Shown here: piece after piece, positions 22,203-58,666 of the stretch
How positions within the stretch are numbered: position 1 is the stretch's first letter
How the letters are laid out: each line of letters opens with the position of its first letter
IMG/VR virus record: IMGVR_UViG_3300041583_000345
Location: 57,931 to 121,930 of that record
Direction: 5' to 3' (one strand)
DNA: 64,000 nt
Source of the DNA: a virus
Program-made: the position numbers and the translations under genes
Notes under the pieces: generated by a model
Seen by the model: only the letters and a program-made list of their open reading frames with translations
The model's database searches: none
What the model was told of the DNA's origin: nothing

Positions 22203-22216
22203 CTTATATAAATAGT

Positions 22217-24172: not shown

Positions 24173-24199
24173 AAAATACGGTTTACATATAAATAGTAG

Positions 24200-26407: not shown

Positions 26408-26472
26408 ACTTACTTAAAACGCTAAATAGTTATTTATACTTATAAATAGGCTAGTTTTTACATAACAGACAT

Positions 26473-30362: not shown

Positions 30363-31024
30363 AATGATTTAAGAACTGCTTCTTTAAGCGTCTTTTCTCT
30401 TTTAGTTAAACCCTCCATTATACTCTGTATAGCCATGTCATTTACTTCATCAGCCATTTCATCTGTTAGTTTATCTAACTCATCATCTGTTAATGGAGTT
30501 CCGTCTTCATATTCTGCATAACTTATAAAAGCATCAGCAAAGTCTGGGTAGTCTCTAGAGTCAACGCCATCTACTTCTATGGTTGATCTATCTATAGGTT
30601 TTGTTAAAGCACTAGGAGGATTCCCTCTACGTGCAGACCTAGCTAACATAGCATCAATACTTGCATTTGAACCTTTTTTTGGTTCATTCTCTAAAGAAAC
30701 TTCGTTTTTCCTTTCTCTCATTGACATTTCCTCCGAATTGGAGGCGAAGTCAATTACATCGTCTTTTAAAGCTGCTAAATCTTGTAGCAAATCTGTATCT
30801 ATTCCTCCCTGGTCATTCCATGCATTTATATAATCATCTACTGTAGGAAGACTTGTTATATGTTTAGGAGCATATTTATTCATTATTCGATCAAAGTTGA
30901 TTCTCTCTAAAGCTACTCTTAAGGCTTCTTCCTCACCTTCTATTGCTTGTTCTTTAATTATTTTACTTGTTTGTGAAAGTTTATTTTCTAATATAAACCC
31001 TCGTAGGTTAAAGTTGTTGCTCAT
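30356..31024 (-). CDS. Putative internal head protein sharing a module with ORF 31606-33408
   Basis: NF..I..KY.P....LPT.DDYI.AW...GG.D module; directly downstream of the protease gene. Confidence 0.65.
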   Translation of the reverse strand: MSNNFNLRGFILENKLSQTSKIIKEQAIEGEEEALRVALERINFDRIMNKYAPKHITSLPTVDDYINAWNDQGGIDTDLLQDLAALKDDVIDFASNSEEMSMRERKNEVSLENEPKKGSNASIDAMLARSARRGNPPSALTKPIDRSTIEVDGVDSRDYPDFADAFISYAEYEDGTPLTDDELDKLTDEMADEVNDMAIQSIMEGLTKREKTLKEAVLKSLK

Positions 31025-31602
31025 AATGCTCTTAATATATCGTTTATAATTAATTCTAGTTTACTATATATATTATCAGTTGTTTTTCCTTCATTTAACG
31101 CTACTGGGTTCATAAAAGCTCCCTGTGTAGATGGATTAGATACGAAGTCCCAACATACTAGCTCAAAATCAGTTTGTACTTCTAAAGTACCTTCGTTTGT
31201 TTGCTGTACTGAACCGGTTCCTCTAGAGGAAATACCTATTGTATGCCCTGCTTTGCATATTTCTTTAACAATATTACCTGAAGGTGTATTTAATAGCTCT
31301 ATACGTCCCATAAGGGCGTCTCCCTCCCACCATAGTTCTTTTACTACATGTGAAGCGTTCTTTAGAGAGACTATAGGAGACTCAGGGTGATCAAGTTCTC
31401 CAAAGGCATTTCCAACCTTAACAAACTCTTCTATATATCTTTGAGATTCTCTAAGAAGAATTTCTTTACTGTATGTGCGTCCGTTTTGATTCTTGGCTAC
31501 TGCTCTCTGCAGAATACCTTCTACTTCGTAGACTCCAGGTTTTGTTTTGGATTCTGTAAGTAGGGATCTAAAAGGGGTGACATCTACTAATAGCTGTGAC
31601 AT
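31021..31602 (-). CDS. Prohead protease (gp21-like)
   Basis: NQNGRTY, GELDHP, GISSRGTGS, WDFVSNPST. Confidence 0.95.
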   Translation of the reverse strand: MSQLLVDVTPFRSLLTESKTKPGVYEVEGILQRAVAKNQNGRTYSKEILLRESQRYIEEFVKVGNAFGELDHPESPIVSLKNASHVVKELWWEGDALMGRIELLNTPSGNIVKEICKAGHTIGISSRGTGSVQQTNEGTLEVQTDFELVCWDFVSNPSTQGAFMNPVALNEGKTTDNIYSKLELIINDILRAL

Positions 31603-36414: not shown

Positions 36415-36444
36415 TGAAATAATATTTATATATAAATAGTTGGT

Positions 36445-41003: not shown

Positions 41004-43712
41004 TTACTTAGTTCTACAATGATCTTTACCTTTTAAAAATGGAGTTTTACATTTAGACCCCTTAACGTGTACCCGGCCACATTTTCCACAGCAGGTTCCT
41101 TTTTCTTCGTCAATATGGTGACCCTTATCTGTTGCCCAATCATCCATATCATCGTTGACATCCTCATCTTCCGTAATGGATAAAAGGTTAAGCTTTTTAG
41201 TTTCGTCTTCTGCTCTTTTCTTAGTTGCAAAATCTGTTATAATTTTATCTCCTTTCCATACTTGGTATGTATTATTAGATTTCGAAAACTTTACTTTGTG
41301 TTTTCCCTCTTCTATTGATTTTTTAATTACACCACCTTTATTATATATGTTTGTAGCTTTAGTATCGCCTGTTCCTTTATTGTAGGATACACTATATTGA
41401 GGTCTATCCATTATGTCTGTTCCGGCTTTTGTGATAACACCTGGGTGGCCTAAGTGTTTTACTTTGTCTCCTACTTTAAACTCTAACCCTGAAGCTTCTT
41501 CTAGGTCTTCGCTTACTATATTACCTTTGGTAGTTTCAGATACCTCTTTAGATAGTTTTTTATACTTAGATAGTAAATTAGCTATTTTGTCATCTTTCCC
41601 AACCATTGTATTAATTTGACTAGGTTCTAATTTTCTACTATAGTATTTTTCTATTTGATTTTTGAGGTCTTTAAGTTGAGAGGGTTCGTTTACTTCTATT
41701 TTACGTTCCTCAAGATATTCATTTTCGGCACCAACAGCATTATATGCTTCTATACCAAATCTTTTTATTACTTCTTGTTGAGATTTCCCAGAATCGATCA
41801 TTCGCTTTGCTCCCTCAATATCTTTTCTAAATTGTGTTTTTTTAGGTTTGGATGGGCGACTGGCTGCTTTGTCAGCATACTTTTGTTGTGCTGGTGTTAT
41901 TTCATTTACACCATCATAGTTTTGTTTTCTTAATACTTGCGTAACAGCGTAGACAGCATCCTGTAATGAATAATCGTATCTATCTGCTAATTTTCTTATA
42001 AATCCATTTACTAGTCTATCTAATTCGGGGTTTACATTTTCTTTTATATTAGAGGAGGAGGGGAGTATTGAATTAGTACCTCTAACTATTAGTCTTAGTT
42101 TACCATTTTTTATAACTACAGTTTTTGTAAATAAGGAATCTGACTTAACATGGTCCACCTTATAATCTGTGCCTTTAATAAATGAGTTTTTATCTTTACC
42201 ATTATATTTTACAGTATCTCCGGGTTTTACCGTATTATAAAATTTGATTTGTTCTTTTTGGTCTAGCCCTTCATTTTCTTTTACTAAATGGGACATCCAT
42301 GATGAATCTATTTTATACCCATCCAGCCAGTCTTTTAGTTCAGCAGGGGAATCTCTCTTAATGGTAGAAGTAGCATTTTGATCATATATACTAGCATCCT
42401 TCTTTGTTATATCCATTTCCCATTTATTCCCACTTTTTTGAATATCGTATTGCTTACCAGTATTACTGTCTTTATATAATGTTGAGTTACCTTCATTTAA
42501 CCCATCATAGTTTTGTTTTCTTAATACTTGCGTAACAGCGTAGACAGCATCCTGTAGTGAGTAGTCGTACCTATCTGCTAATTTTCTTATAAATCCATTT
42601 ACTAGTCTACCTAATTCGGGGTTTACATTTTCTTTTACTATTTCATCAATAACATCAATAACTTCATCTGTATCATACCCACTTGAATCTGCCCAATCTT
42701 GGAACCTATCGAAGTCTCTTTTTGGTAAAACATAATAAGTATCCCTACCGTCTTTTTTATAACCTAAGTTTCTAGAAAGACTTTCATCAGATAAGAATTT
42801 ATCATCTAAATATCCATCGTCTAATGTGAACGTAATGGTATTACTATCTTTATTAGTATTTTTATTTTTATTCTTTTCGGTTGCTATTAAAGCTTGTATT
42901 TTCTCTATGGTGGTTTTTTCAGGATGGTTTTTTAGTCTATCAGCTTGTTGTGCATCAGAAAATTCATTATCTGTCATTTCACTTGTTGGTGTAGGGTGAT
43001 ATTGTCTTAGGTTTGGCTTTACCTCTATACCGTGTTTAGTACCTCCTTTTAAAAAGGCTGCTCTACGGCTTAATTTATTGGCGGTTGATACTGCCCTATT
43101 TGATGTTTTAATCTTTTTTTCTTGCATTTTGGAAGAAAAATGTTTGGTAAGCTCATTTGCTATTACATCAACATGTATTACCGGTTCTCCTGATGGTTTA
43201 ATACCTATTTCACCAACTGCTTTATTATATGAAAAATCTACTAAGTGTAATTCTTCTCCCTCTATATAAAAAGAAAAGTTATCTGTCCGATTATCTTTAT
43301 ATTCTACGTGTAGATTAAAACTACCCTCTTCTATGTTTATAGCTTTCATATGAGATAATTCATCTCCGGCTGCTATAAGGGCTTTGGCTAAAGATTTACC
43401 TACCCCTCTTGCAATTTGTTTAGTTTCTTCTACCGAAAATCTAGCTTCTCCTTTTGCTTCTTTAGTTAACTTAACGTTGATCCCTTTTTTGGCTAGTTTT
43501 TCTGCTTCTATTTCACTATCAGTAGATATTGTACCAGCTTCTTGTTCAGCTAAAATTTTTAATTCACTATCTAATGCTTCTTTAATAGACTGTAGCTGGG
43601 ATATGGTTTCTTGTACATTTATTCCAGGTACATTTTGATATGTTCCGCTCTGTAGTGAAGTTAGTGCGGACTGAACGTTTGTTAACCTGTCGTTTAGTTC
43701 TTGATATGTCAT
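41004..43712 (-). CDS. 902-aa modular putative internal polyprotein
   Basis: MTYQEL start; short modules bounded by hydrophobic-x-E sites; duplicated 45-aa module. Confidence 0.6.
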   Translation of the reverse strand: MTYQELNDRLTNVQSALTSLQSGTYQNVPGINVQETISQLQSIKEALDSELKILAEQEAGTISTDSEIEAEKLAKKGINVKLTKEAKGEARFSVEETKQIARGVGKSLAKALIAAGDELSHMKAINIEEGSFNLHVEYKDNRTDNFSFYIEGEELHLVDFSYNKAVGEIGIKPSGEPVIHVDVIANELTKHFSSKMQEKKIKTSNRAVSTANKLSRRAAFLKGGTKHGIEVKPNLRQYHPTPTSEMTDNEFSDAQQADRLKNHPEKTTIEKIQALIATEKNKNKNTNKDSNTITFTLDDGYLDDKFLSDESLSRNLGYKKDGRDTYYVLPKRDFDRFQDWADSSGYDTDEVIDVIDEIVKENVNPELGRLVNGFIRKLADRYDYSLQDAVYAVTQVLRKQNYDGLNEGNSTLYKDSNTGKQYDIQKSGNKWEMDITKKDASIYDQNATSTIKRDSPAELKDWLDGYKIDSSWMSHLVKENEGLDQKEQIKFYNTVKPGDTVKYNGKDKNSFIKGTDYKVDHVKSDSLFTKTVVIKNGKLRLIVRGTNSILPSSSNIKENVNPELDRLVNGFIRKLADRYDYSLQDAVYAVTQVLRKQNYDGVNEITPAQQKYADKAASRPSKPKKTQFRKDIEGAKRMIDSGKSQQEVIKRFGIEAYNAVGAENEYLEERKIEVNEPSQLKDLKNQIEKYYSRKLEPSQINTMVGKDDKIANLLSKYKKLSKEVSETTKGNIVSEDLEEASGLEFKVGDKVKHLGHPGVITKAGTDIMDRPQYSVSYNKGTGDTKATNIYNKGGVIKKSIEEGKHKVKFSKSNNTYQVWKGDKIITDFATKKRAEDETKKLNLLSITEDEDVNDDMDDWATDKGHHIDEEKGTCCGKCGRVHVKGSKCKTPFLKGKDHCRTK
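41911..42046. repeat. 136-bp intragenic direct repeat, copy A
   Basis: 5 mismatches versus 42502-42637 by manual alignment. Confidence 0.9.
42502..42637. repeat. 136-bp intragenic direct repeat, copy B
   Basis: Encodes KENVNPEL(G/D)RLVNGFIRKLADRYDYSLQDAVYAVTQVLRKQNYDG. Confidence 0.9.
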
Positions 43713-44429: not shown

Positions 44430-45089
44430 TTAGGTATTTTTGTACCGTGCTTTTTGTAAGTATTTATTTTCTTTTAATTTAGGTGTATTGTCGTGCCAAC
44501 ATTTATGGCAAGTATATAAATCGTCTCCACCCTCTTTTATTTTCCAATGCCAATCGCAATTGTCGCAGTGTATTTCATCTCCAACTATGGTTTCGAACAT
44601 ATCTTCGGCTTTATAAGCTGATACGTCTACTTCAATATCATCTGTTCCACTTATTTTAGCTTTTGGAAAATTTTTCTGTATAATAATTTTATATAATTTT
44701 GCTCTAGTATTATCTTTAGCATCTTCTTCCCCTGTTTTTCCTTTGGTAGGAGAATATAGTATACTATCAACATCACCCTTATATTCTATAAAAGATTTTA
44801 CTATATCAACTATAGTAGACATTATTTTAAGTGGTTCGTTTCCCCCCGTTAATTGTTTTGAAGACATACCCCTAACACCATGTTGGGCTAAAAATTCAAG
44901 TTCCCAAACAGAACGAGTGCCTATGTAATTGTAGAGATTAACCTCATATTTAGTACCACTGTCTGTGATAAAAGTATATACGTCATTTTCTTCATCGCTT
45001 TTATCAAATTCAGCTTTCCAATCGTAGGGTTTTTGAGATAAATCTCCTATCTCGTTTAGTTTTTCGAATATGATATCAGTTAATTTCAT
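44430..45089 (-). CDS. Putative internal protein with a C-terminal zinc ribbon
   Basis: MKLTDIIFE leader; CDNC...CHKC. Confidence 0.65.
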   Translation of the reverse strand: MKLTDIIFEKLNEIGDLSQKPYDWKAEFDKSDEENDVYTFITDSGTKYEVNLYNYIGTRSVWELEFLAQHGVRGMSSKQLTGGNEPLKIMSTIVDIVKSFIEYKGDVDSILYSPTKGKTGEEDAKDNTRAKLYKIIIQKNFPKAKISGTDDIEVDVSAYKAEDMFETIVGDEIHCDNCDWHWKIKEGGDDLYTCHKCWHDNTPKLKENKYLQKARYKNT

Positions 45090-45091
45090 CT

Positions 45092-45817
45092 TTATCCTAA
45101 ATTAGTAGACTGTGTACCACCTTGAGGTTTAATTAAATCTTGGGCAAAAGCAGTTAATTTTTCTATTGAAGTAAATGCTGGGGTTCCTTTAGTTTCTCCT
45201 GTAGCTACATCTACTACTCTATATAATGCTCTACCGGATTTGTCTTTATATGTAGGTTCCACTTTTACTAATTTAAAAATATACTGATCATTATACTTAG
45301 AAGAAATTTGGTTTGGCCATTCTTGTGGGATGTCTTCCTCCTTTATAGCTTTTTTAGATAATTTAAAAGCCGCTAATCTTACTTTTAATCTTTTAATTTC
45401 AGCTTCATACCCCTTAGGATTTTCATCTTGTAATATTTTAATTTCTTTTTCTATATCCTTATAGGCTACAGCATTTTCGGCTACAGCTTTTTTAGCTGTT
45501 AAAGCTGCTTTAACTTGAGCTATATCTTTTTCTAGGTCCATAACTTCTTTATCCGTACCTCTAGATTTAGCTATTGCTAGCTCGTTGTTTAGGTTTATTA
45601 TGTACTGAGCTAGTTCATTTCTAGTGGTATTATCATATGCTGCTTCATTCTTCATAGCATTACCTGCTGCCACTGCATCTTTGTGTGCATTAGAATTACC
45701 GTGAGATGGTTTTTTACCTTTTTTACGTTTAGCATTAATATTAGCCCATAAGCCCGGTGTATTCTTTTCTGCTAATAAAGCATCTTTGATAATTTCTATA
45801 AGGTATGATTTTTTCAT
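45092..45817 (-). CDS. Modular putative internal protein
   Basis: MKKSYLIEIIKDALLAE leader; modules end in xxE. Confidence 0.6.
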   Translation of the reverse strand: MKKSYLIEIIKDALLAEKNTPGLWANINAKRKKGKKPSHGNSNAHKDAVAAGNAMKNEAAYDNTTRNELAQYIINLNNELAIAKSRGTDKEVMDLEKDIAQVKAALTAKKAVAENAVAYKDIEKEIKILQDENPKGYEAEIKRLKVRLAAFKLSKKAIKEEDIPQEWPNQISSKYNDQYIFKLVKVEPTYKDKSGRALYRVVDVATGETKGTPAFTSIEKLTAFAQDLIKPQGGTQSTNLG

Positions 45818-46211: not shown

Positions 46212-46790
46212 TTAAAAATGTTCCCGTAAGTGACCTAAGTAAGTCTTGAGGTCTTCTAATAACTGCTTGCTTTTATTTGTATTTGAGTTCCAGTCTTCTA
46301 TTACTCCATCTTCTGTGACAAAAGATTCGTTTGTATTAGATACTAAATCTAACACCCAATGTTCAACATCTTTTGCAAATGCTTGAATATTACCGGACAT
46401 CATTTTCTGTTCATAAGCTTGATATAAACCTGCTTTTTGTAAATCTGCTTCAAAGTTGACTGTACATGGATCAAAACAAAAACCATGTAGTTTATACATT
46501 TTTTTAGCTAAGTGGTGTTTCATTGTGCCCTTACACTTTGGACATATTAATGGTATATGAACTGCCTTTTTTGCAGCGTCTAATTTGGTAATGTTCTGTC
46601 TAATCCCATTTTTAACCGTCCAGTTCTTACCTCCTTCTTCCCATATTTCACCTTCTTTGTACCTCTTTATAACTTTTTGATACCCAACTTGGGTTTTAGT
46701 GTTAGCTGTATAGTCCTTATTTACTATATTCCTAACTCGTTGAACATCTGATTGTTTAAAGTCTTTTTTTAATAACGATTCCTTACTCAT
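46212..46790 (-). CDS. Hypothetical zinc-binding protein
   Basis: CPKC...CFDPC. Confidence 0.65.
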   Translation of the reverse strand: MSKESLLKKDFKQSDVQRVRNIVNKDYTANTKTQVGYQKVIKRYKEGEIWEEGGKNWTVKNGIRQNITKLDAAKKAVHIPLICPKCKGTMKHHLAKKMYKLHGFCFDPCTVNFEADLQKAGLYQAYEQKMMSGNIQAFAKDVEHWVLDLVSNTNESFVTEDGVIEDWNSNTNKSKQLLEDLKTYLGHLREHF

Positions 46791-47328
46791 ATCCGAGTTC
46801 TTTTAATTGACCTATTACTTGTTTTACATTTCCCTGCACACATCTAATAGCTATCCCGCCGCTGGCAGTCCATTCTTCTATATTAGATTTCTTATCATCT
46901 ATTAGGATAGTATTACTTTTTGCGTATCTTTGTTTATCAGCAGAGTATGAAAATATTACTTTTGGGTGTGGGGTTAAATGATTTCTAACCCACATATTTT
47001 TACCCAATCTTGAGTTATTATCTCTTGAAGGGGATGTAAGAAGGTCTGGTTGATAAGGTTTGATAAAGTCCCAAAGTTGTTGGCCGTTGGGCATAAATTT
47101 CATATCTGACCAAAACTTAAGTCCCACTTTCACATCTATTAACTCCCAAAAAGCGGCTGTACTATTTTTACTCTCGTATTCTTTTGGTTTCATACCGGAG
47201 AAATGTTCAAATCTCTCTTCGAAATCTGTTAATACTCCGTCCATATCACAATAAATCTTGTAAGGTGGTTTTTCTTTTTGTTCCGGTAATGTGTACCCTT
47301 CTGCTAGTAGTTCTGATATTTTTTTCAT
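46783..47328 (-). CDS. HAD-family 5'(3')-deoxyribonucleotidase-like phosphatase
   Basis: IYCDMDGVLTDF, LLTSP, ILIDDKKSN; MKKISELLAE leader. Confidence 0.85.
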   Translation of the reverse strand: MKKISELLAEGYTLPEQKEKPPYKIYCDMDGVLTDFEERFEHFSGMKPKEYESKNSTAAFWELIDVKVGLKFWSDMKFMPNGQQLWDFIKPYQPDLLTSPSRDNNSRLGKNMWVRNHLTPHPKVIFSYSADKQRYAKSNTILIDDKKSNIEEWTASGGIAIRCVQGNVKQVIGQLKELGYE

Positions 47329-47340
47329 ATAACCTTTATT

Positions 47341-49968
47341 TTATAAATTAACTTTTAGCCCTAATGCTTTTATACGGCTACTCCATAGTCTTTTAATCTT
47401 CATTCCTTCTTCCGGTGTAACTTCTACTTTATTTAGATAATCATCCACGACGTCTTTAAATGGAGTCTTACTCTTCTTAGCCTTAAAGTACATCCCCTGT
47501 ATCATTGCATCTATTTCTTTTGGAAGAGTATAGTATTTATTTTTATCTAACAAACCTACATTAATAAGGTCTCGTAAAGTTTGATCGTTTCCAAGGTACT
47601 TTCCCTGTTTTAAATTAGTGCCATCCTGTGTGAGGTGCTCTATTTCATGACGTATCACATCTTTAATATCCATTGATAATTCCTGATAATCTATTTTTTT
47701 AGGAACTTCAAATACTATATTTATTAGGGGTTGTATTTCATCTCCATCATCATCAATACCGGGGTTTGCTCCTCCATCTACTGAATAGTTATCTTCTGTG
47801 TTTCTCATGTGGATGTTTAAGTCAAACTCTAAAGGATGGTTATAATCAGCATCTTCCTCAGGACCTACTCTAAATGTATCCTCTACATCCTCACCTTTTA
47901 GGTGTGCAGTTTTAAATACTTTAAATACCGCGCTAGAGATATCATTAGATATCTTATCATACTTTCCTTCACTCACTACTGTTTTTTTTTTCTGACCGTC
48001 TTCCCAGTTGCGGAAGGTTATATTACCCTGTAAATACGCTTCTTTCTCTATCTCTAATAGATTATTATCTTCATTTGTATCACTAGTACCTATTAGGCCT
48101 AAACGTCCTTCTAGGTTCTGTATATGATGTATCATTTCGTGTACAAATGATCTCATAATATCTTTAGGGTGCCTTCCCTCTACATACAAAACTACTTCTT
48201 TTAAAGATGGGTCATAATATGCTGTCTTTCCAAAGAAATTTTCTGATTCGGTTAGGTCTTTTCTAATTCTAATCTCCGGAAGAGGTATAATTTTCATTTT
48301 TTGATCTATCATATACTCTAAAATAGAAGACATATAAGGTGTATAGTCAAATCCTTTTCTTTCTCCTTCCCCTTTTAGAGTTATACGTATATGATCTTGG
48401 TGAAACTCTATATTATAAAAGCTATCTCCAAGTACATCTCTCAATTGATTAAAGGTTCTCAGTAATTTAGCCCTATCATCTGATCTAATTATGGATTTAG
48501 GAGCGATAGGTGTTCCTAAGGATCCTTCTTTAATTTCTTCTTTAGTTGAAAATAAATCTTCAAGTGTACTAGTAAGGGCCATTTCCATTAACGTAGGGGC
48601 TAGTATATTTAATATCTTCTCTCTATCGCTCTTAGATACTTCTTTAGGTATCCAATTACCGGTTTTTAAGTATGTTTCTGAGTGTCTAATTGCAGTGGCA
48701 GAGAATTTATTATCTTCGTCTTTAACTTCAGGTAGGGTGAGTATCTCTAGATTTGGGTGTCTTTCAGGTTGTTTTAAGAAACCTGTAAATTTACTCATTT
48801 CGTCAGGAAGTGCTCCTGTAATAATCTTACCTACTGTGTTCTCATTATATTCTACGTACTTGTATATATCCGTTACTGGTGAGATAGGGCTAATTTTTAA
48901 TTCTATATCTGTAGGTATATACTTTGAATATACTTTCCAAATTTGTAAGGACTGGTCAGGGGTTATTTCTAATCCTTCCCTTACTTTTTTACCAATAAAA
49001 ATTACTAGTTTATCAGCTTTTCCTGCAAGTATTTTAGCATTATTAAAATGTGCTAAATGAGGAGGTTTAAATCCTCCTCCATACAGGGCTACTGTTTTAT
49101 TTTTATTTTCTTGTTCAAGTAAACTATCTACTTTGCTAAGTGCTTTTTCTTTATTATCACCTTTCGGGGTATTCGCTTCTCCTGATTTAACTGATATCAT
49201 ACTTTTAAAAATACCTTTTACCCTATTTTTTGATCTAGGATTTTTTAATTTATGAACAACGTCTACTAATAACTCTTCAAATGAACCTTCTATATTATAG
49301 TTGGATAGTAAATCTTTTATACTATTCCAATTAGTTGAAGTCCAAATTTCCTCTCTAGATACTTCTTTAAACCCTTCTAGTTTGACTTTTCGTAGTGTTA
49401 ATTTATTTGAACTTAAGTTAAATTCAAATTCTTCGTTTTCTTCTAAGGTAGGTATGTTTTTAATTCCCATTCTCTTGAATACATCTTGAGGATTTTCTTC
49501 AAGTAGAACCACTTTAGTCAACCCTAAAATTAATCCTTGCTTTTCAGCAGGTATATCTAAGAACCCACCTTTAAATTTATGTTCTTCATCGGTAAGGGAT
49601 ATTATATTATCTACCTGTATGTACTGGTTTTCTTTACCCTCTATCGGGTACAGTACCGAAATAATTTCTCCAGAATTATAATACTTTCTTCCCAAGTATT
49701 TTTCACTTTTAAATGGAATAATAATAGTGCTAGGAAGAGAATTAATTACACTTATAATTCTTTGTTTAACTTCTTTTTTATCTTCCCCTTCAAATAGGGT
49801 TATTAAATCTAAATCCCCATAATCAGATTTAGACCCTACTTTAACACTGCCGGAAAGATCCGCTTTCTTAAAACCAGGTACTTTTTTTAGAACTTCTTTT
49901 ATATATTTCTGAAATGTCTTTTGTACATCTGCTTTTTCAATTCTATTTCCTCCTGCTACTCCTGACAT
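47341..49968 (-). CDS. Multidomain protein: Pol-beta-type nucleotidyltransferase, HxGH nucleotidyltransferase and two HExxH domains
   Basis: GSVKVGSKSDYGDLDL..QVD; YGGGFKPPHLAHF..FSATAIR; VHEMIHHIQ; RHEIEHLTQ. Confidence 0.75.
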   Translation of the reverse strand: MSGVAGGNRIEKADVQKTFQKYIKEVLKKVPGFKKADLSGSVKVGSKSDYGDLDLITLFEGEDKKEVKQRIISVINSLPSTIIIPFKSEKYLGRKYYNSGEIISVLYPIEGKENQYIQVDNIISLTDEEHKFKGGFLDIPAEKQGLILGLTKVVLLEENPQDVFKRMGIKNIPTLEENEEFEFNLSSNKLTLRKVKLEGFKEVSREEIWTSTNWNSIKDLLSNYNIEGSFEELLVDVVHKLKNPRSKNRVKGIFKSMISVKSGEANTPKGDNKEKALSKVDSLLEQENKNKTVALYGGGFKPPHLAHFNNAKILAGKADKLVIFIGKKVREGLEITPDQSLQIWKVYSKYIPTDIELKISPISPVTDIYKYVEYNENTVGKIITGALPDEMSKFTGFLKQPERHPNLEILTLPEVKDEDNKFSATAIRHSETYLKTGNWIPKEVSKSDREKILNILAPTLMEMALTSTLEDLFSTKEEIKEGSLGTPIAPKSIIRSDDRAKLLRTFNQLRDVLGDSFYNIEFHQDHIRITLKGEGERKGFDYTPYMSSILEYMIDQKMKIIPLPEIRIRKDLTESENFFGKTAYYDPSLKEVVLYVEGRHPKDIMRSFVHEMIHHIQNLEGRLGLIGTSDTNEDNNLLEIEKEAYLQGNITFRNWEDGQKKKTVVSEGKYDKISNDISSAVFKVFKTAHLKGEDVEDTFRVGPEEDADYNHPLEFDLNIHMRNTEDNYSVDGGANPGIDDDGDEIQPLINIVFEVPKKIDYQELSMDIKDVIRHEIEHLTQDGTNLKQGKYLGNDQTLRDLINVGLLDKNKYYTLPKEIDAMIQGMYFKAKKSKTPFKDVVDDYLNKVEVTPEEGMKIKRLWSSRIKALGLKVNL

Positions 49969-49972
49969 ATTA

Positions 49973-50881
49973 TTATACTTTATATATTGTTAATTTTGAA
50001 TCATCTGGTAGAAATTTTCCTTTCAGTCCTAATCTTTCCTGATTATCAATCCAGTAAGGTTGTAAATCTTCAGGTATATCAGCTCTAGTAGAGTCTAGAA
50101 TCTTAATAAATCGATCTAAAATACTATTTAACACATCTTCTTTAAAGTTATTTCTCATAAACTCTATTAATTTAAAATAATCTTCTAATATTTCCGAAGT
50201 AAATTTTATATTATAAGATTTGGTTAATAAGTCTATTGCTTTAGAAGGTGACTTTGCTACTATTTTTTGAGTTTCTTTATCCTTAACTCCGTAGTTATGG
50301 GAAAATGTATATCCTAAATTTGAAAATAAAGCAAGCATTAGTTGTGTTCTATGTAGTCCTTTAACATTTCCTGAGTAGTTAGCGGAGTAGTAAGCAAAGG
50401 ATAACCAATCGAGATTACCGAAGTTAATGTCAATTTGTACCCCTATATTAGATTGTTCACCTTGGGGATTATATTGGGGGAATACAAAAAATAGAGTACC
50501 TGTTGATGAGCTTTTCTTATCAACTCCTATATCGGTGTTAAATTCTTCTATCTTATCCGCAATAGTATCCAGTACCGCTCTTTTAATTAACTGCCTGTTT
50601 GTTGCAGATCTAGCTCTTTGTTTATGGTTCCTATATAGTTCAACAATTTTAGATCTATCTAAATCCCAATCTTCTACTTGTATTAGAGATCTTTCTCCCA
50701 TTGCTAAGTCTATATCCCCGGAGTATTCTTTTTTTCCAACTGAACCTAGGGGTTTAATGTCTTTAAAGTATTTAGATGCTTTAGGGAAGATAGTACCTAA
50801 CTGCTGGTAGAATTTACCTAATGTAGGTTCTATGTCCTCTCTTTTTATCTTATCTGTAGCATTAAATACATTACCTCCCAT
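49973..50881 (-). CDS. Pol-beta-superfamily nucleotidyltransferase
   Basis: LGSVGKKEYSGDIDL and third acidic residue in VQIDI; TATTTATT at 50945-50952. Confidence 0.75.
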   Translation of the reverse strand: MGGNVFNATDKIKREDIEPTLGKFYQQLGTIFPKASKYFKDIKPLGSVGKKEYSGDIDLAMGERSLIQVEDWDLDRSKIVELYRNHKQRARSATNRQLIKRAVLDTIADKIEEFNTDIGVDKKSSSTGTLFFVFPQYNPQGEQSNIGVQIDINFGNLDWLSFAYYSANYSGNVKGLHRTQLMLALFSNLGYTFSHNYGVKDKETQKIVAKSPSKAIDLLTKSYNIKFTSEILEDYFKLIEFMRNNFKEDVLNSILDRFIKILDSTRADIPEDLQPYWIDNQERLGLKGKFLPDDSKLTIYKV

Positions 50882-50970
50882 ATTTCAATATCTTTATTAG
50901 TTTCTAAATATAGTAAATTTAATTCAAATAAACTACACTATTCTAATAAATAGTTTCTATATACGTTTAC

Positions 50971-51756
50971 TTACTCAAGCTTAAGTGCGGTGGGAAATGA
51001 CTTATATGCAGGCTTAACATCAGGGTTATCTAGTAAAAAGAGCTTGTAGATTAACATAAATAACTCATGATTTTTATCAATTTCATCTACAACTTTAATT
51101 TGCCAACCCTTACCTTGGTATGTATCTTTCTTTTTAGATTCTCCTCTAGTTAAAGCCTTCAACCATAAGATCCCAGTTCTTTGTATCTTTAATCCTGTTT
51201 TTTCTTCTATAGCTTTAGCGTATGCAGCTAACTGTAGGTCATAAGTTTTATGTAAATGGTTAGATGTTTTAATATCTAGTAACCATATTTCTCCATCCAT
51301 TTTTACAACTAAATCTGCTGTGCCTGCATATTTGTGTTTATCTGACCAAACAAATTCTTCAGTTGAAATTAATTCAGGTTTATGTGTAGTCCAAAACTCA
51401 TGAAATCTCATAATCATTTGCCAAACAAGTTGAGAGTATTTTGCATTTCCAAAATCATCTATCCAGTTTAATTCTTCTCCTTTTAATAATGCTTCAGCTG
51501 CTTCGTGTACCTGTGTACCTTCTCTACCAGCTTTCCTCATTATAATATCGGAGTTGTGTCCTACATCTTTTAACCAGCTTTCAAAAAACCTATTCTTTGG
51601 CATGTATTGAAGTATGGTTGTTACTGATGGGTAAAATACATCTTCGTCTCTCTGGTAAACTCTTCTATCTAGAAAGTTAACCTGTTTAAGTTTTTTGTTC
51701 CAATCTAATCCCGGTTTTGTACTTTCTTTATTAAAATTTGTTCCTTTTTCAATCAT
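50971..51756 (-). CDS. PD-(D/E)xK exonuclease (Cas4/lambda-exonuclease-like)
   Basis: YPSVTTIL, YAGTADL, LDIKTS, QLAAYA. Confidence 0.85.
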   Translation of the reverse strand: MIEKGTNFNKESTKPGLDWNKKLKQVNFLDRRVYQRDEDVFYPSVTTILQYMPKNRFFESWLKDVGHNSDIIMRKAGREGTQVHEAAEALLKGEELNWIDDFGNAKYSQLVWQMIMRFHEFWTTHKPELISTEEFVWSDKHKYAGTADLVVKMDGEIWLLDIKTSNHLHKTYDLQLAAYAKAIEEKTGLKIQRTGILWLKALTRGESKKKDTYQGKGWQIKVVDEIDKNHELFMLIYKLFLLDNPDVKPAYKSFPTALKLE

Positions 51757-52676
51757 AGGTCTAATTTATGCAGTATTAAACTTGAAAAATCTAATTCTTC
51801 TGCTATTTGTACTAATTTAGTAAAAGCTTCAAAGCCCATTTCAGATGGGTCTTTAGATTGAAGGTTTATTATAAATATTCTTTTACCTTGGTTTAATAAT
51901 TGTTCTGCTATTTTTAAAGCAGTTATTTTTGCATCTAAATCTAATGCTATATATACGTCCACTAATGGACTAGATATAATTTTTTTATAAAGGGCTTCTG
52001 ATATTGCTTTTCCAAGTATTGGAATTGCATTTCTACGAATTGCTATAGCATCAAAAGCTCCTTCACATAGTATAATAGGCTGAGTCCAGTTAATTAGGTT
52101 TTCAAAAAATATTATGTCTTTGGAAGCTTCTGGGTTTTTATACTTAAAGTAATTGCCATCATGACTTCTTCCAACATAGTAATTGAGTTGACCGGATGTA
52201 GAATAACTTGGAATAATAATTCTTCCTCCAAAGTCCCCATCTGTACAGTATCCAATATCATATTTAATAAAATCATTGTCGGTAAGTCCTCGTTCATATA
52301 GATACTTTCTTACTTTATTTGCTATGACTGATGTTGTAGAGGCTCCATATAGTGGTTGAAACTCTTCAGGTAATGTTACTGCTTCTAATCCTTTATACTC
52401 AACATAGGTTCCTTTTGGCAAATACTTTAGTATATCGGCTGCTTGGTCTCTAGGTGTTTTTAACTGTTTTAATAGTGATCGAATAGTTGTACCTCGAGAT
52501 TGGCATACCCAACATTCCCAAAAGTTTTTACCCTCTTCGTTGGTGTGCATATTAATCTCAAGCTTAGGTTTGCGGTGATTACAGAAAGGGCAATGAAAGG
52601 CATAGTTCTCTCTTGCTCTTTTATGGCTTTTGCCAAGTAAGTTTTCAACCGATCCTAATAGGAAAGCATAATCCAT
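51753..52676 (-). CDS. DNA primase (zinc finger plus TOPRIM)
   Basis: CPFC..WECWVC, RIIIP, LCEGAFDAI, ALDLDA, KDP. Confidence 0.88.
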   Translation of the reverse strand: MDYAFLLGSVENLLGKSHKRARENYAFHCPFCNHRKPKLEINMHTNEEGKNFWECWVCQSRGTTIRSLLKQLKTPRDQAADILKYLPKGTYVEYKGLEAVTLPEEFQPLYGASTTSVIANKVRKYLYERGLTDNDFIKYDIGYCTDGDFGGRIIIPSYSTSGQLNYYVGRSHDGNYFKYKNPEASKDIIFFENLINWTQPIILCEGAFDAIAIRRNAIPILGKAISEALYKKIISSPLVDVYIALDLDAKITALKIAEQLLNQGKRIFIINLQSKDPSEMGFEAFTKLVQIAEELDFSSLILHKLDL

Positions 52677-53754: not shown

Positions 53755-54513
53755 TTATATTCCTAATGATTTAGCATATTTCATTAAATTACAAGTCCAG
53801 TAGCCTGATTTTGTTTTGTCCGTCTTTGTAGAACACTTGTGCCTTATTCTATAAGCAGACATGGCTCCTTTAACTTTATTCTTTTGTGGGATACCCCCAT
53901 CGGTAAAAGCTACTTTTATTACTTTATTCCCATCCTTAACATAAACGTAGTATTTTTTAGTACCTCCACGTTTAGGTTTATCAAGTTTTACTTTTTTACC
54001 TTGATATTCTGCCTCGTTCATATATCCAACTGAAGCTTTTAACATATCAAATCCGCTGTAGTCAAAAGATTCATTATTTACGTCTACTGCTTTTCTAAAC
54101 TTATCCATATCTATTTGACCCCCTATTGATTCAACCATTTCTTTTATCTGGTCAAAATCAATCATATCAGCAATACATGACGCTTCATCAATTGTATCTT
54201 CATTTTCAATCATAGAGTCAATAAGTGCTCCAATTTCAAATAATGGATTATATTTTTTTGATACCATAGGCAGGTCTAATGGAACTTTCATACCATTATA
54301 TTGTGCATATTCTCCTATGTCTGTTGTTTCTATCAGATCTTGGTCCTCTTCTGTTAACTCTATTTCTTCGTTGCTAAGAGATTCTCTTGCTTCAGCAAAT
54401 AGGTTTACAAAGGCTGTTTCGTTACCCCGGTAGACATGTTCGTTTAATGGTAGTCCATTATCTAAATGGTACTTTAATGATGGGTAGCCAAGTACTTCTG
54501 TTAGTTTAATCAT
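53755..54513 (-). CDS. Modular putative internal protein with a basic C-terminal domain
   Basis: MIKLTE start; after YMNE comes AEYQGKKVKLDKPKRGG..KKYYVYVKD...YWTC. Confidence 0.65.
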   Translation of the reverse strand: MIKLTEVLGYPSLKYHLDNGLPLNEHVYRGNETAFVNLFAEARESLSNEEIELTEEDQDLIETTDIGEYAQYNGMKVPLDLPMVSKKYNPLFEIGALIDSMIENEDTIDEASCIADMIDFDQIKEMVESIGGQIDMDKFRKAVDVNNESFDYSGFDMLKASVGYMNEAEYQGKKVKLDKPKRGGTKKYYVYVKDGNKVIKVAFTDGGIPQKNKVKGAMSAYRIRHKCSTKTDKTKSGYWTCNLMKYAKSLGI

Positions 54514-54973
54514 TTTTAAAATCTTTTCTGTAGAATTTCCCGAGGATATTATCGTTTATGTAATCGTTAGTATCTTCAAGTACTCCTTTTATAAATAGGT
54601 ATTTAGTTTCAAAGTACGTTAATTGTTTTTTATTAGGCACGTACTGTAGTATGCTTCTTTGAAAGTCTTCTATTTTTCCTTTCCGTACTAACTCTTTAAT
54701 TTCTACTTGAGAGCCGTAATAGGTTTTCCAATCACTTTCAGTTACTACCTTCTTTTTGGCAGGAGTTCTACCTCCTATACCTGCTGCTTTTCTTTCAGCT
54801 TTTAAGTTTTCAAGCTCTCTTATTCCAAGTCTTTTATTCCTTTCAAAATATAGAACTTTTTTTCCTATATACTTCTTACCTGTCGGTATATGTTTTACTT
54901 CATATATAAAGCCATATGTTCCTGCAGGCATATTTTCTATATCCGGAACCGGTGTTGTGTTATATTTCCACAT
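54506..54973 (-). CDS. GIY-YIG endonuclease (T4 EndoII-like)
   Basis: YGFIYEVKH..TGKKYIGKK, WKTYYGS, YFE. Confidence 0.75.
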   Translation of the reverse strand: MWKYNTTPVPDIENMPAGTYGFIYEVKHIPTGKKYIGKKVLYFERNKRLGIRELENLKAERKAAGIGGRTPAKKKVVTESDWKTYYGSQVEIKELVRKGKIEDFQRSILQYVPNKKQLTYFETKYLFIKGVLEDTNDYINDNILGKFYRKDFKND

Positions 54974-56329: not shown

Positions 56330-58666
56330 TTAGAATTGGTTAGCAAAAGCCATATAGATATAGGTTTGTCCGTTTCCATTAAATTCTACATAACTAGTCT
56401 TTAATTCAAAGCCATTAGACAGAAAATCTATACCGTCATAAGCACCACCCTCTGCATTACTAAGGTTAGCATATAGTTGAATATCAGCTCCTCTTTTATT
56501 ATCCATCATTTGCCAGTTTCCGTTAGCTGAACTTGTCAATTTAATCATTACAAAAGCTGGTTCAAAACCAGTTGTAACAGTTGGCCCATTAGCAGAACCA
56601 TTACCAGTATAACTACCAATCTTACTAAACCCAGCCTTTTCAGCAAAGCAGTATGCTACTAAGTTTTCCCCGCCTATAGAACCCATTTGTCCGTCAAAAC
56701 TATAACCACCAGCAGCGCCAGCTGTATTTAATGTTAATATCTGTCCTCCTTTTAAAGTAAATGTATCATTTGAAGTTGAATTTTGCTCAACAGATTGATG
56801 CCAAGTAATCCATTGGTCGGTGCTATCGTTTCTATTTTTAACAATAAGCAAATCCAAAGGGCTTCCTAATCCGTGACCCACAGTAGTGCCAGAAGAATTA
56901 CCTCCGCTAAAAGTTACAATACTAAACCCAGCATCTACATTAGCAGACACCTCAGAAGTAATAGAGCCGTCTGTGTTAGTTACAGCAGCACCACCAGCTT
57001 TCCAACACCAAGCTACAAAGTTTTGAGAGTTTGCATTAGTTCCAACAAAAGTAGCTGCACTTACTGTAAATCCATCTAAATCAAAAGAGGTTATTGTATT
57101 GTAAAAATTTTCAGCAACAGTTAAATTTGAAATTAAGCCGTAACCAGCACCCCTAACTACATCGTGTAATTGATGGTCATAATCAATGCTTCTGCTCTTA
57201 ACCCATACTAAATCTGGCTGAAAGCCTACCCCACTAATAGATTGAGTAGAACCATTACCAGTGTAAGTAACAGTATTAAAACTTGCGTTACTTGGGCATT
57301 GCACCTCATTGTAAAGCGTTGTTACTTCTGCTGCTGTTATGGCTCTGTCGAAGATTTTAACTTGGTCTAATTTTCCGCTAAACTGTCTGCCAGAAGAACC
57401 AGCATATCCGCTTATTTGTGTCTCTAAACTAACAGAATTATTTAAAGCACCATAGCCACTATCTGAAATAGTAACACCTACGTTGTTTAAATATGAATTA
57501 AGAACACCGCTGCTATTTATTGTAAAAACTAAATGACTCCACACATTTGCAGTAAGCGTTATTGTAGGGGAAACCTTAAAAGAAGAACCATTAAAAAGAG
57601 CAAAATAATAAGTGTTTGTACTAGTGCCACTTTGTTGAATTACCCAACCACCTGTAGAGGTGTGTAAGTGGTCTATCATATGATTAGTACCACCTTGAGT
57701 AGCTTGAGGATTTACCCAAATAGATAAAGATATTGCACTAGCACCCAATCCAGCAACCCCAAAAGATACGTTTCCTAAAGTTATTTCACTACTACTTCCA
57801 TTAAACCCTCCAGCACTACCAAACCTTCCTTGTGTCCAACTAACATTCGTAGCCGTTCCATCGTATAAAGTTCCACTACCATTAGAATCTGTAGCATTGC
57901 CATCTAGCTTGTAGTAAGCTATGCAGTCTGGCACTATTTGTGGCGTATCTGTTGTGCAAGTCTTTTCGCAAGCTGCCTCTGCGTATAAGGTAGATACCTC
58001 TGCTGCTGATATTGCCTTATTGAAGATGCGTACTTGGTCTATTGAGCCGTTTAACCACCTATTTCCGGAAATCCAAGTGCCAAGCTGTAACCCGACGCTT
58101 GTATTGTATGCTTTTCCAGCCCCTCTTGTTAAGGTGGATTCTAATACTCCATTTATATATGCTTTTAAAGTTCCACCAGATAATCCGTCCCAAGTTACAA
58201 TAATATTAATCCAATTTCCGGAAATTAAGTTTGTTGAAAATCCAGTCATTACTTCATCTACATTTGGTCCGTTACCAGCAAATCCATAAACGTTTAAAGT
58301 GTTGGTGGTTGGGGCTATTGAAAATTGGTTATTATCTGCGGAAGAAGTTGAGCCTAAGCTAACTAAAATATTGTCTGTATTTGTTGTTTTGTACCAGCAA
58401 GATATTGTTCTTGATAAATTCCCACTTATTCCAGAAGAAGCAACAACCTTACTACTACTCCCATTAAAAGAACCAGCACTATCTATATGACCATTAACAA
58501 AAGAAACATTAGTAGCTACGCCATCATAGTTGCCACTCATATCTGAGCCATCCCAGTTCAATTGGTATAAAGCTACACCGCTGCTATCTCCAAAAATATC
58601 CGCTTCGTCAGAAGTACATACACCACCGCCAGCATCATTTGATTTTATTAATCTTGAATTAATCAT
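56330..58666 (-). CDS. Putative receptor-binding protein with two LamG/ConA-like domains and a C-terminal fibre domain
   Basis: Two LamG-type repeats (F.GSSS...IDQVRIFNKA; LDQVKIFDRA); FNTVTYTGNG..GFQPDLVWVKSR. Confidence 0.75.
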   Translation of the reverse strand: MINSRLIKSNDAGGGVCTSDEADIFGDSSGVALYQLNWDGSDMSGNYDGVATNVSFVNGHIDSAGSFNGSSSKVVASSGISGNLSRTISCWYKTTNTDNILVSLGSTSSADNNQFSIAPTTNTLNVYGFAGNGPNVDEVMTGFSTNLISGNWINIIVTWDGLSGGTLKAYINGVLESTLTRGAGKAYNTSVGLQLGTWISGNRWLNGSIDQVRIFNKAISAAEVSTLYAEAACEKTCTTDTPQIVPDCIAYYKLDGNATDSNGSGTLYDGTATNVSWTQGRFGSAGGFNGSSSEITLGNVSFGVAGLGASAISLSIWVNPQATQGGTNHMIDHLHTSTGGWVIQQSGTSTNTYYFALFNGSSFKVSPTITLTANVWSHLVFTINSSGVLNSYLNNVGVTISDSGYGALNNSVSLETQISGYAGSSGRQFSGKLDQVKIFDRAITAAEVTTLYNEVQCPSNASFNTVTYTGNGSTQSISGVGFQPDLVWVKSRSIDYDHQLHDVVRGAGYGLISNLTVAENFYNTITSFDLDGFTVSAATFVGTNANSQNFVAWCWKAGGAAVTNTDGSITSEVSANVDAGFSIVTFSGGNSSGTTVGHGLGSPLDLLIVKNRNDSTDQWITWHQSVEQNSTSNDTFTLKGGQILTLNTAGAAGGYSFDGQMGSIGGENLVAYCFAEKAGFSKIGSYTGNGSANGPTVTTGFEPAFVMIKLTSSANGNWQMMDNKRGADIQLYANLSNAEGGAYDGIDFLSNGFELKTSYVEFNGNGQTYIYMAFANQF

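Follow-up and report, generated by a model that had tools for sequence, protein, structure and literature searches.

Introduction

The internal proteins of phage T4 (IPI, IPII, IPIII and Alt) bear a 10-residue leader ending in hydrophobic-x-Glu; the T4 capsid-targeting sequence (CTS) is MKTYQEFIAE (PMC8442874), its residues 8 and 10 govern processing, and proteases of the gp21 family cleave after Glu in short L/I-x-E motifs (PMC9026906). Polyvalent proteins combine unrelated enzymatic domains in one polypeptide with a constant zincin-like metallopeptidase and variable effector inserts, and are predicted to be processed and delivered with the DNA (Iyer et al., 2017; PMC5512222). Here we analyse a cluster of genes for predicted nucleotide-transfer enzymes that recalls both systems. 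It lies at 46783–50952 of a 64,000-nucleotide stretch of DNA from a large Flavobacterium-type phage (hereafter the window; positions 57,931 to 121,930 of IMG/VR virus record IMGVR_UViG_3300041583_000345, which spans 122 kb and is 74% complete).

As in T4, an S77 (gp21-family) protease is encoded in the genome and a leader recurs on unrelated proteins, that of gene C of the cluster having 10 residues and ending in hydrophobic-x-Glu. Unlike the T4 internal proteins, the putative cargo would be enzymes strung into polyproteins with internal joints, and genes A and B have no leader. The likeness to polyvalent proteins lies in gene B, whose product has five modules including one with a zincin fold (Z1), and in the variable inserts of its relatives, such as ART-PolyVal. 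The core differs, consisting of a HIGH nucleotidyltransferase with two zincin-like domains, PolX-like nucleotidyltransferases and an NT5C-type HAD enzyme, a set that a term search of the text of PMC5512222 did not bring up; in that paper Pol-beta nucleotidyltransferases appear as minimal MNT-like forms in Firmicute conjugative elements; the Pfam model MPTase-PolyVal gave a match at only E 0.12, in one relative.

On sequence comparison, genes A, B and C and a fourth gene for a 192-amino-acid (aa) protein are a split form of one modular enzyme-polyprotein family, whose modules are fused, split and reordered in relatives. We tentatively propose, with confidence a little short of even, that they specify a late-made polyprotein set that would be cut at its joints, probably loaded into the head, and active early in infection on DNA ends or nucleotides.

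Results

Gene organization and modules

All genes of the window are on the minus strand, and those under study are as follows:

Gene A, 49973..50881, minus strand: open reading frame (ORF) of 302 aa, a predicted stand-alone miniature family-X-polymerase-like nucleotidyltransferase with palm, thumb and C-terminal helical domain
Gene B, 47341..49968, minus strand: ORF of 875 aa
Gene C, 46783..47328, minus strand: ORF of 181 aa, a predicted NT5C-type HAD 5'(3')-(deoxy)nucleotidase with a 10-residue leader (phrog_2643)
Fourth gene, 46212..46790, minus strand: 192-aa zinc-ribbon-like protein, from its ORF and synteny

Genes A and B are 4 nt apart and B and C 12 nt, in line with the tight packing described in an earlier note on this DNA; that note counted three genes, however, whereas the last 8 nt of C are shared with the 192-aa gene, and the packed unit therefore comprises four. 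ORF translations and alignments located all the motifs that had been named in A, B and C, and models and profiles agreed with the proposed domains (two Pol-beta-type nucleotidyltransferases, an HxGH transferase, two HExxH domains and a leader-tagged HAD phosphatase). Genes for a DnaG-type primase and a PD-(D/E)XK exonuclease lie immediately upstream of the cluster, and the window also encodes a T4-type portal, major capsid protein and head maturation protease. By mapping query segments onto the best 150 of 2,861 relatives, we delimited five modules in B:

N1, B residues 1–285, 49114..49968, minus strand: second PolX-like nucleotidyltransferase, a distant paralogue of A
AT, B residues 288–470, 48559..49107, minus strand: predicted HIGH-superfamily (NMNAT/PPAT-like) adenylyltransferase
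Linker and L module, B residues 471–535, 48364..48558, minus strand: disordered start, then helix and beta-hairpin
Z1, B residues 536–662, 47983..48363, minus strand: minimal gluzincin metallopeptidase fold
Z2, B residues 663–875, 47344..47982, minus strand: second HExxH domain

Conserved Glu joints and CTS-like leaders

Three short Glu sites in B, LLEQE (residues 283–287), EIKE (478–481) and VVSE (664–667), all lie at domain joints, and each joint is conserved in 17 orthologues as hydrophobic-x-Glu followed by Gly or Ala (Gly, Ala or Ser for the joints as a whole). With a hyphen at the proposed cutting point, the joints in these 17 orthologues read:

N1/AT joint: TLSE-AL or LLE-QE (mark after the first E)
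AT/L joint: [IV]KE-GSSGTP (mark after E)
Z1/Z2 joint: VMAE-G[RK]YD (mark after E)

The AT/L and Z1/Z2 joints fall in or beside low-confidence segments of a structural model of L-Z1-Z2, the N1/AT joint being outside the model. Glu sites between the fusion domains had been noticed before, and these three held up; a fourth, LME (459–462), shows no conservation in orthologues.

Fused relatives follow the same rule. Their internal A-type domains start with GGN[VL]F directly after [LIV]-x-E in nine of nine cases, as do their internal N1-type domains, which start with SG.AGG.RI (nine of nine; 18/18 for both types together), while N-terminal copies of either domain are preceded by Met alone (175/175), as are those of the window (M-GGNVF in gene A and M-SGVAGGNRI in N1). 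Methionine aminopeptidase removes the initiator Met before Gly and Ser; Met removal or a cut after Glu would therefore yield the same mature N-terminus by either route.

A candidate for such a cut is encoded in the window itself, and its S77 family is also present in four of the five records of distant relatives:

31021..31602, minus strand: head maturation protease, T4 gp21 type (Pfam Peptidase_S77, 6.6e-33; phrog_207, 9e-51)

The leader that the earlier note had seen on gene C, MKKISELLAE, is present and shares L8 and E10 with the T4 CTS. Gene C orthologues carry equivalent leaders (for example MKKISELLAE or MGNL.DLLLEE), most AT-first relatives begin with MNQLTKFLVDGILNE-type leaders, and an N-terminus of the MKLTDII.E type (MKLTDII.E, MKLSDILLE, MKKISELLAE and similar) is common to ten window proteins with unrelated bodies:

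Leader genes (at least 10), window 21921–54513: starts at 54513, 53607, 53162, 47328, 45817, 45089, 41002, 40333, 23030 and 22202

In the window as a whole, hydrophobic-hydrophobic-(x)-Glu ending at residues 7–18 occurs in 18 of 69 ORFs, compared with 7.9 +/- 2.5 at random internal positions (2,000 trials, maximum 17), and among those 18 are the major capsid protein, the protease and a protein in the scaffold position.

Distribution, architecture and synteny of the family

A scan of 1.8 billion cluster representatives found relatives of gene B in 2,861 clusters at 50% identity (E <=0.001). The family is known almost only from metagenomes and has no Pfam model. In a set of 50,697 deposited phage records, the AT-Z1-Z2 protein is present only in Immutovirus (immuto) isolates, and Immutovirus is thus its sole cultured carrier. 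The nearest deposited genomes, those of three Flavobacterium phage vB_FspM_immuto isolates (160 kb, with 67% DNA identity over the cluster), have the same gene order as the window: primase, exonuclease, hypothetical protein, 'NMNAT' (907 aa) and 5'-3' deoxyribonucleotidase. We found no other description of the family in the literature, the immuto papers that came up dealing with DNA modification and a divergent PolA. In nature, DNA near-identical to window 46783–50952 occurs in salt-lake metagenome runs of many studies from 2017–2021, as well as in freshwater-labelled runs, and one contig (L002) is 98% identical to this segment; the source phage is a persistent natural population.

Among the best 150 representatives, the commonest core is AT-Z1-Z2, with variable inserts between modules and the order of Z1 and Z2 sometimes swapped, and L travels with Z1. 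In the same set, eight representatives have the 302-aa gene A module (A302) joined to N1 and two have it joined to AT-Z1, and at least 25 carry the HAD domain of gene C at the C-terminal end of the AT-Z1-Z2 polypeptide. Segments of relatives matched ART-PolyVal (2.2e-5, two of 46 relatives), RegB-like, DUF6934 and DUF6782 models; the ART-PolyVal and RegB-like inserts are of a kind typical for injected polyvalent proteins. In one locus (L083:768-3929), AT, A302 and N1 form a single 991-aa protein whose neighbours are a primase and a fused SbcCD-like (Metallophos plus AAA_23) nuclease, which is once more a context of replication and recombination.

Of 80 IMG/VR loci that have a homologue of gene A, about 70 keep the order primase, exonuclease, A, B, HAD, 192-aa gene, so the genes named in the earlier note do co-occur in relatives, and in many are physically fused. 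What is constant is the AT-Z1-Z2/HAD core: A302 and N1 proved not to be universal partners, being absent from distant relatives (primase about 45% identical), two of which have complete genomes of 166 and 174 kb. There, the A and N1 slot is taken by a leader-tagged Zeta_toxin/AAA_33 P-loop kinase (3e-12; L111:9262-10017, and likewise in L094, L102, L142 and L160), after which AT-Z1-Z2, HAD and the 192-aa gene come in the usual order. Since the kinase fills this slot, the PolX-like pair is an optional, exchangeable opening module of a conserved cassette.

About 6 kb before the window starts, the record carries a gene for QueC, the 7-cyano-7-deazaguanine synthase (record 51640–52368, locus L086; 4.6e-38), and the phage DNA is therefore probably 7-deazaguanine-modified, like that of its cultured relative immuto, in which fdPreQ1 replaces every G (PMC10516641). 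An apparent NAD synthase match (8e-4) falls within the QueC gene and was discarded.

These observations bear on the main alternative, in which nothing is packaged and the enzymes form a cytoplasmic toolkit linked to replication, serving repair and pool control for DNA whose guanine is replaced by a 7-deazaguanine derivative. The PolX-like enzymes would fill gaps, the nucleotidase would remove canonical deoxynucleoside monophosphates such as dGMP and the adenylyltransferase would make a cofactor, while the zincins would remove stalled covalent transglycosylase–DNA adducts in the manner of Wss1/SPRTN, or process the polyprotein itself. It accords with the position of the block, always after primase and PD-(D/E)XK exonuclease even at 45% identity, with QueC in the record itself and in three of five relatives' records (both complete ones among them), with the full replacement of G in immuto, with the kinase, another nucleotide enzyme, in the first slot of relatives, and with the DNA-dependent proteases Wss1, SPRTN, IrrE and ArdC among the best matches of Z1 (see below). 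However, it leaves three things unexplained: a portable leader borne by many otherwise unrelated proteins encoded near the head genes, joints that are specific for Glu and match the head protease, not a zincin, and the effector-type inserts (ART-PolyVal, RegB-like) of relatives. In addition, the co-occurrence of QueC may simply reflect shared ancestry. Pfam searches of the record for TGT/DpdA and NAD ligase were blank, which, as for NAMPT below, is a weak negative because the record is 74% complete and DpdA3 divergent. Overall, we consider such a toolkit unlikely, albeit worth serious attention.

Gene A and the N1 module

The catalytic motifs of gene A are G46-S47, G55-D56-I57-D58 and Q149-I150-D151, and G46, S47, D56, D58 and D151 are invariant or nearly so in 33 homologues (58–65% identical), which also keep two further blocks, KGLHRTQL and FSHNYGVK. 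N1 has G40-S41, G51-D52-L53-D54 and Q118-V119-D120, with catalytic residues again invariant or nearly so in 10 homologues; the Asp triads on which the earlier note relied are thus conserved in both. The hhalign program aligned N1 to the gene A profile at E 4.2e-5 over 139 columns with GS, DxD and D in register, and by their sequences A and N1 are paralogues with intact catalytic triads. Stand-alone N1 proteins exist in relatives, and N1 of relatives matched Pfam DNA_pol_B_palm (1.7e-5; 25.5 and 21.8 bits in two relatives, with a cut-off of 25), Polbeta and NTP_transf_2, the N1 of the window itself giving weak NTP_transf_2 and MTPAP matches. For gene A, Pfam models including DNA_pol_B_palm gave no match, and PDB sequence searches with single sequences and profiles of A and N1 returned nothing significant.

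Structure was more informative. In VIA-align searches with an AlphaFold model of gene A (predicted local distance difference test, pLDDT, 90.7), family X polymerases ranked top: African swine fever virus (ASFV) Pol X at Z 9.3 (162 of 176 residues, root mean square deviation 3.6), TdT at 9.1, Pol beta at 9.0 and Pol lambda at 8.8. Residues 5–236 of the model align to 142–335 of the Pol beta chain (palm and thumb) over 176 aa, whereas terminal uridylyl and poly(A) transferases, OAS, CD-NTases and MenT reached Z 4.4–6.9 with about 100 residues aligned. Foldseek likewise returned Pol beta and Pol lambda (E about 3e-5), and the best annotated matches among BFVD viral models were giant-virus PolX proteins, together with an uncharacterised protein of jumbo phage Atu_ph07. 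These matches point to the nucleotidyltransferases being specifically PolX-like, with palm plus thumb, and nucleic-acid 3' ends are therefore favoured as their substrate over protein nucleotidylation or signal synthesis.

Gene A shares with family X (Pol beta, lambda, mu, TdT, ASFV Pol X) the GS, DxD and D of the palm and the thumb-like subdomain that follows, but at only 13–15% sequence identity. It further differs in having some 90 additional residues that form a helical domain at the C-terminus, and in belonging to a paralogue pair with one member embedded in a polyprotein. Both A and N1 begin at the palm and have neither the 8-kDa deoxyribose phosphate (dRP)-lyase nor the HhH finger domain. 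Their absence rules out an enzyme of the Pol-beta type, though a minimal form would still fit, since ASFV Pol X lacks them too.

The weaker fold matches include those that would be expected if the proteins were host-directed effectors, with the nucleotidyltransferases modifying host proteins or making or decoying immune nucleotide signals and the zincins cleaving host targets. CD-NTases, OAS and MenT are among them (Z 4.4–5.2), and polyvalent proteins are described as having both Pol-beta nucleotidyltransferases and zincins among their effector domains (PMC5512222). Yet these matches are clearly weaker than those to PolX (Z 9) and cover the core only, the thumb-like region argues for a nucleic-acid substrate, and no sensor or effector partner is present, so that we give this explanation a slender chance.

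The AT module

AT carries GGFKPPHLAH at residues 298–307 (PHLAH at 303–307) and SATAIR at 423–428, and across 46 relatives the GGFKPP...H and R positions show a conservation of 90% or more. Pfam CTP_transf_like matched it at E 0.0076, and 26 of the 46 relatives, the best at 1.1e-6. Against the PDB, the AT family profile found the archaeal NMNAT MJ0541 (3e-5), PPAT (5e-5) and NaMNAT (1.4e-4) about equally well, for which reason the acceptor substrate cannot be read from the sequence, and NCBIfam scores were low (NMNAT 14.1 bits, cut-off 127; NaMNAT 12.7 bits, cut-off 210).

The orthologue in immuto is called NMNAT/NadR in GenBank, and AT does share HIGH-superfamily motifs with NadM and NadR of NAD salvage (NARP2-type). 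Unlike these, it is not fused to a Nudix or ribosylnicotinamide-kinase domain, and the 74%-complete record yielded no NAMPT partner; zincins are fused to it instead. Were AT a true NMN adenylyltransferase, as that annotation says, the cluster might reconstitute NAD+ against NAD-depleting defences, with the HAD enzyme and the relatives' kinase handling NMN and nicotinamide riboside. The HxGH and SxTxxR motifs, MJ0541 as the best single PDB profile match, an NadM-like GRFQP variant in some relatives and the pairing of a kinase with a HIGH nucleotidyltransferase, reminiscent of NadR, all agree with this, and phage NAD salvage is documented (PMC9503650). But PPAT scored almost as well as NMNAT, the NCBIfam NMNAT models gave 14 bits against cut-offs of 127 or more, the Pfam search of the 74%-complete record for NAMPT/NadV (NAPRTase family) gave no match, and neither the obligatory zincin pair nor the PolX-like pair is explained. 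NAD+ reconstitution therefore seems to us improbable.

The L, Z1 and Z2 modules

The L-Z1-Z2 model had a pLDDT of 88.8, falling below 50 over B residues 471–489, the first 19 of the model, which hold the conserved KE|GS joint. Z1 has HEMIH at 610–614 and E-x-E-A 27 residues later, and its H, E, H and downstream E are invariant in alignments of relatives. VIA-align matched it to Wss1 (Z 8.5), the ERAP1 catalytic domain (8.0), PprI/IrrE (7.6), SPRTN (7.6) and ArdC (7.1), thus indicating a zincin fold; this came from the exhaustive aligner alone, Foldseek with the L-Z1-Z2 model giving nothing at E 0.001 or better, and Pfam matches (DUF6782, SprT-like, MPTase-PolyVal) were weak. With Wss1, SPRTN, IrrE/PprI and ArdC, Z1 shares the compact fold and the HExxH plus a Glu on the next helix (Z 7.1–8.5), but neither sequence-level membership nor their DNA-binding or SUMO/ubiquitin-binding modules, and it stands in tandem with a second HExxH domain.

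In that second domain, Z2, HEIEH at 774–778 is followed by KEIDA, and H, E and H are invariant in an alignment of relatives. Its secondary structure (one helix, four strands, the HExxH helix and further helices) has a zincin-like order. A PDB sequence search found no solved relative, and an ESM Atlas search returned only unnamed viral clusters and sub-threshold leads, to LPD23 (0.88, below the trust level) and SprT-like. Z2 is missing from the exhaustive structure list because Z1 filled that list, and we make no new-fold claim for it. Nor do we claim that Z1 and Z2 are duplicates, hhalign between them being weak (E 0.003, probability 10%).

Gene C and downstream genes

Gene C matched phrog_2643 (5'-3' deoxyribonucleotidase) at 1.4e-26 over residues 20–170, nearly its whole length, and has DMDGV at 28–32 (HAD motif I) and a later LIDD (motif IV). 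Pfam NT5C gave no match for the window's own protein, reaching 1.1e-5 in fused relatives only, and there was a weak match to the polynucleotide kinases of phrog_415. Pelagiphage HTVC008M, Melnitz and several jumbo phages have stand-alone homologues. Gene C thus shares with NT5C (mdN/cdN) and its phage homologues (phrog_2643) a full-length match, DxDxV and a later DD, but differs in its cleavable-looking leader and in being, in many relatives, the C-terminal module of an AT-Z1-Z2 polyprotein. From its sequence it is an NT5C-type nucleotidase, with the activity itself predicted.

A HAD phosphatase in the same cassette as the relatives' AAA_33 kinase recalls T4 Pnkp, and the phrog_415 match points the same way, as do the terminal uridylyl and poly(A) transferases among the fold matches of gene A (Z 5–7). 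One may imagine RNA or tRNA end repair, in which the nucleotidyltransferases would rebuild 3' ends and the phosphatase, together with the relatives' kinase, would heal cuts made by host anticodon nucleases, like T4 Pnkp/Rnl. The HAD protein, however, matches the capped NT5C mononucleotidase family over its full length (1.4e-26) and not the Pnkp phosphatase; PolX matches of gene A span palm and thumb, those to RNA nucleotidyltransferases the catalytic core only; and no ligase was seen in the cluster. We accordingly rate this prospect as remote. NAD+ rebuilding, RNA end repair and host-protein modification are possible readings, all with less support than the cytoplasmic toolkit.

The 192-aa gene comes after the HAD gene in nearly all relatives and gave no match in Pfam and PHROG searches. 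Beyond it are two further genes:

44430..45817, minus strand: two downstream leader-bearing genes, of 241 and 219 aa, whose modules are inserts in relatives

According to phmmer, these modules, among them a C-terminal CxxC zinc ribbon, sit inside AT-Z1-Z2 proteins of relatives; such an insert is seen between Z1 and Z2 in relative P0105. A 902-aa 'bead-on-string' protein (window 41004–43712, minus strand) shares short modules with the 241-aa gene (45092–45817) and also with an 834-aa protein (L085:4879-7383) adjoining a distant AT-Z1-Z2-HAD gene. As judged from these sequences, the whole 41–54 kb region looks like a pool of shuffling modules. At its upstream end, beyond the primase, a SegE-like GIY-YIG homing endonuclease (Pfam 4.8e-26; window 54506–54973, minus strand) keeps its position in distant relatives.

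Candidate promoter element

A promoter box had also been reported ahead of gene A. The sequence is indeed there, the coding strand at 50952–50945 reading TATTTATT, but it matches the TATTTATA box at only seven of eight positions, and a sigma-70-type promoter and terminator scan of the window, probably inapplicable to this host group, gave sites at or below chance. The exact octamer TATTTATA has 24 matches on both strands of the window, with 14.9 expected; 17 are on the coding (minus) strand and, read on that strand, the sites lie mostly 2–30 nt upstream of structural-gene starts:

Exact TATTTATA examples, minus (coding) strand: 36431–36438, 26441–26448, 24188–24195, 22207–22214

We regard TATTTATA as a candidate late-promoter element with very short leaders, and the imperfect copy before gene A as suggestive only.

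Discussion

In the course of events that we tentatively favour, the conserved joints would be cut after Glu, freeing separate enzymes. The phage would use its own head protease as the cutter, an S77 enzyme of the T4 gp21 type with cleavage after Glu; hence the pieces, or at least those with CTS-like leaders such as that of C, would reside in the prohead and leave it together with the DNA, as T4 internal proteins or polyvalent proteins do. Finally, and this is the weakest step, in the cell the PolX-like pair would fill or extend 3' ends or gaps of the incoming, probably 7-deazaguanine-modified DNA, while the adenylyltransferase and the nucleotidase would remodel the mononucleotide or dinucleotide pool.

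Several observations weigh against this proposal. Neither A nor B has an N-terminal leader, and the leader-like motif of B is internal, at the N1/AT joint. The cluster directly follows primase and exonuclease, outside the head module, and a replication or repair role therefore fits equally well. The hydrophobic-x-Glu motif is short and parts of it may be structural, such as the start of the first Z2 helix, and the two zincin-like domains of B could themselves cut outside the capsid. As to gene A, its PolX likeness is one of fold (Z about 9, against about 7 for other nucleotidyltransferases), it has no significant sequence match of its own, and the domains by which Pol beta binds DNA, the 8-kDa and finger domains, are absent. 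Cutting, packaging and every substrate are moreover what we infer for any member of the family.

In its broadest form, the proposal would make these proteins a very large undescribed class of capsid-delivered enzyme polyproteins in aquatic Bacteroidota phages, with a T4-like targeting and cleavage code and injected with hypermodified DNA, which we put forward as a speculative and rather unlikely extension. If true, mini-PolX polymerases, a HIGH-type adenylyltransferase and a nucleotidase would be virion cargo, joined in relatives by a kinase, and the genome would arrive with its own end-repair and nucleotide enzymes; these would be the first family-X-like polymerases found as virion cargo, and the leaders a second, independent code for directing enzymes into the head. 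The scale on which such proteins have been neglected is considerable, the 2,861 clusters having no Pfam entry and the Immutovirus members being labelled plain NMNAT.

If the joints are real head-protease sites, one short, readable code would cut apart, and probably package, a changeable set of enzymes. They would then extend the ideas of T4 internal proteins and of polyvalent proteins to polymerase-like and nucleotide-metabolic enzymes, and would provide a ready-made targeting tag for loading proteins into capsids of Bacteroidota phages. Should the proteins be cytoplasmic instead, they would be candidates for a system that repairs DNA fully substituted with 7-deazaguanine, a substitution whose completeness is still unexplained, and that manages the nucleotide pool for it. 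Either way, the paired mini-PolX proteins would represent a new branch of a well-studied polymerase family, one for which a cultured phage–host pair exists.

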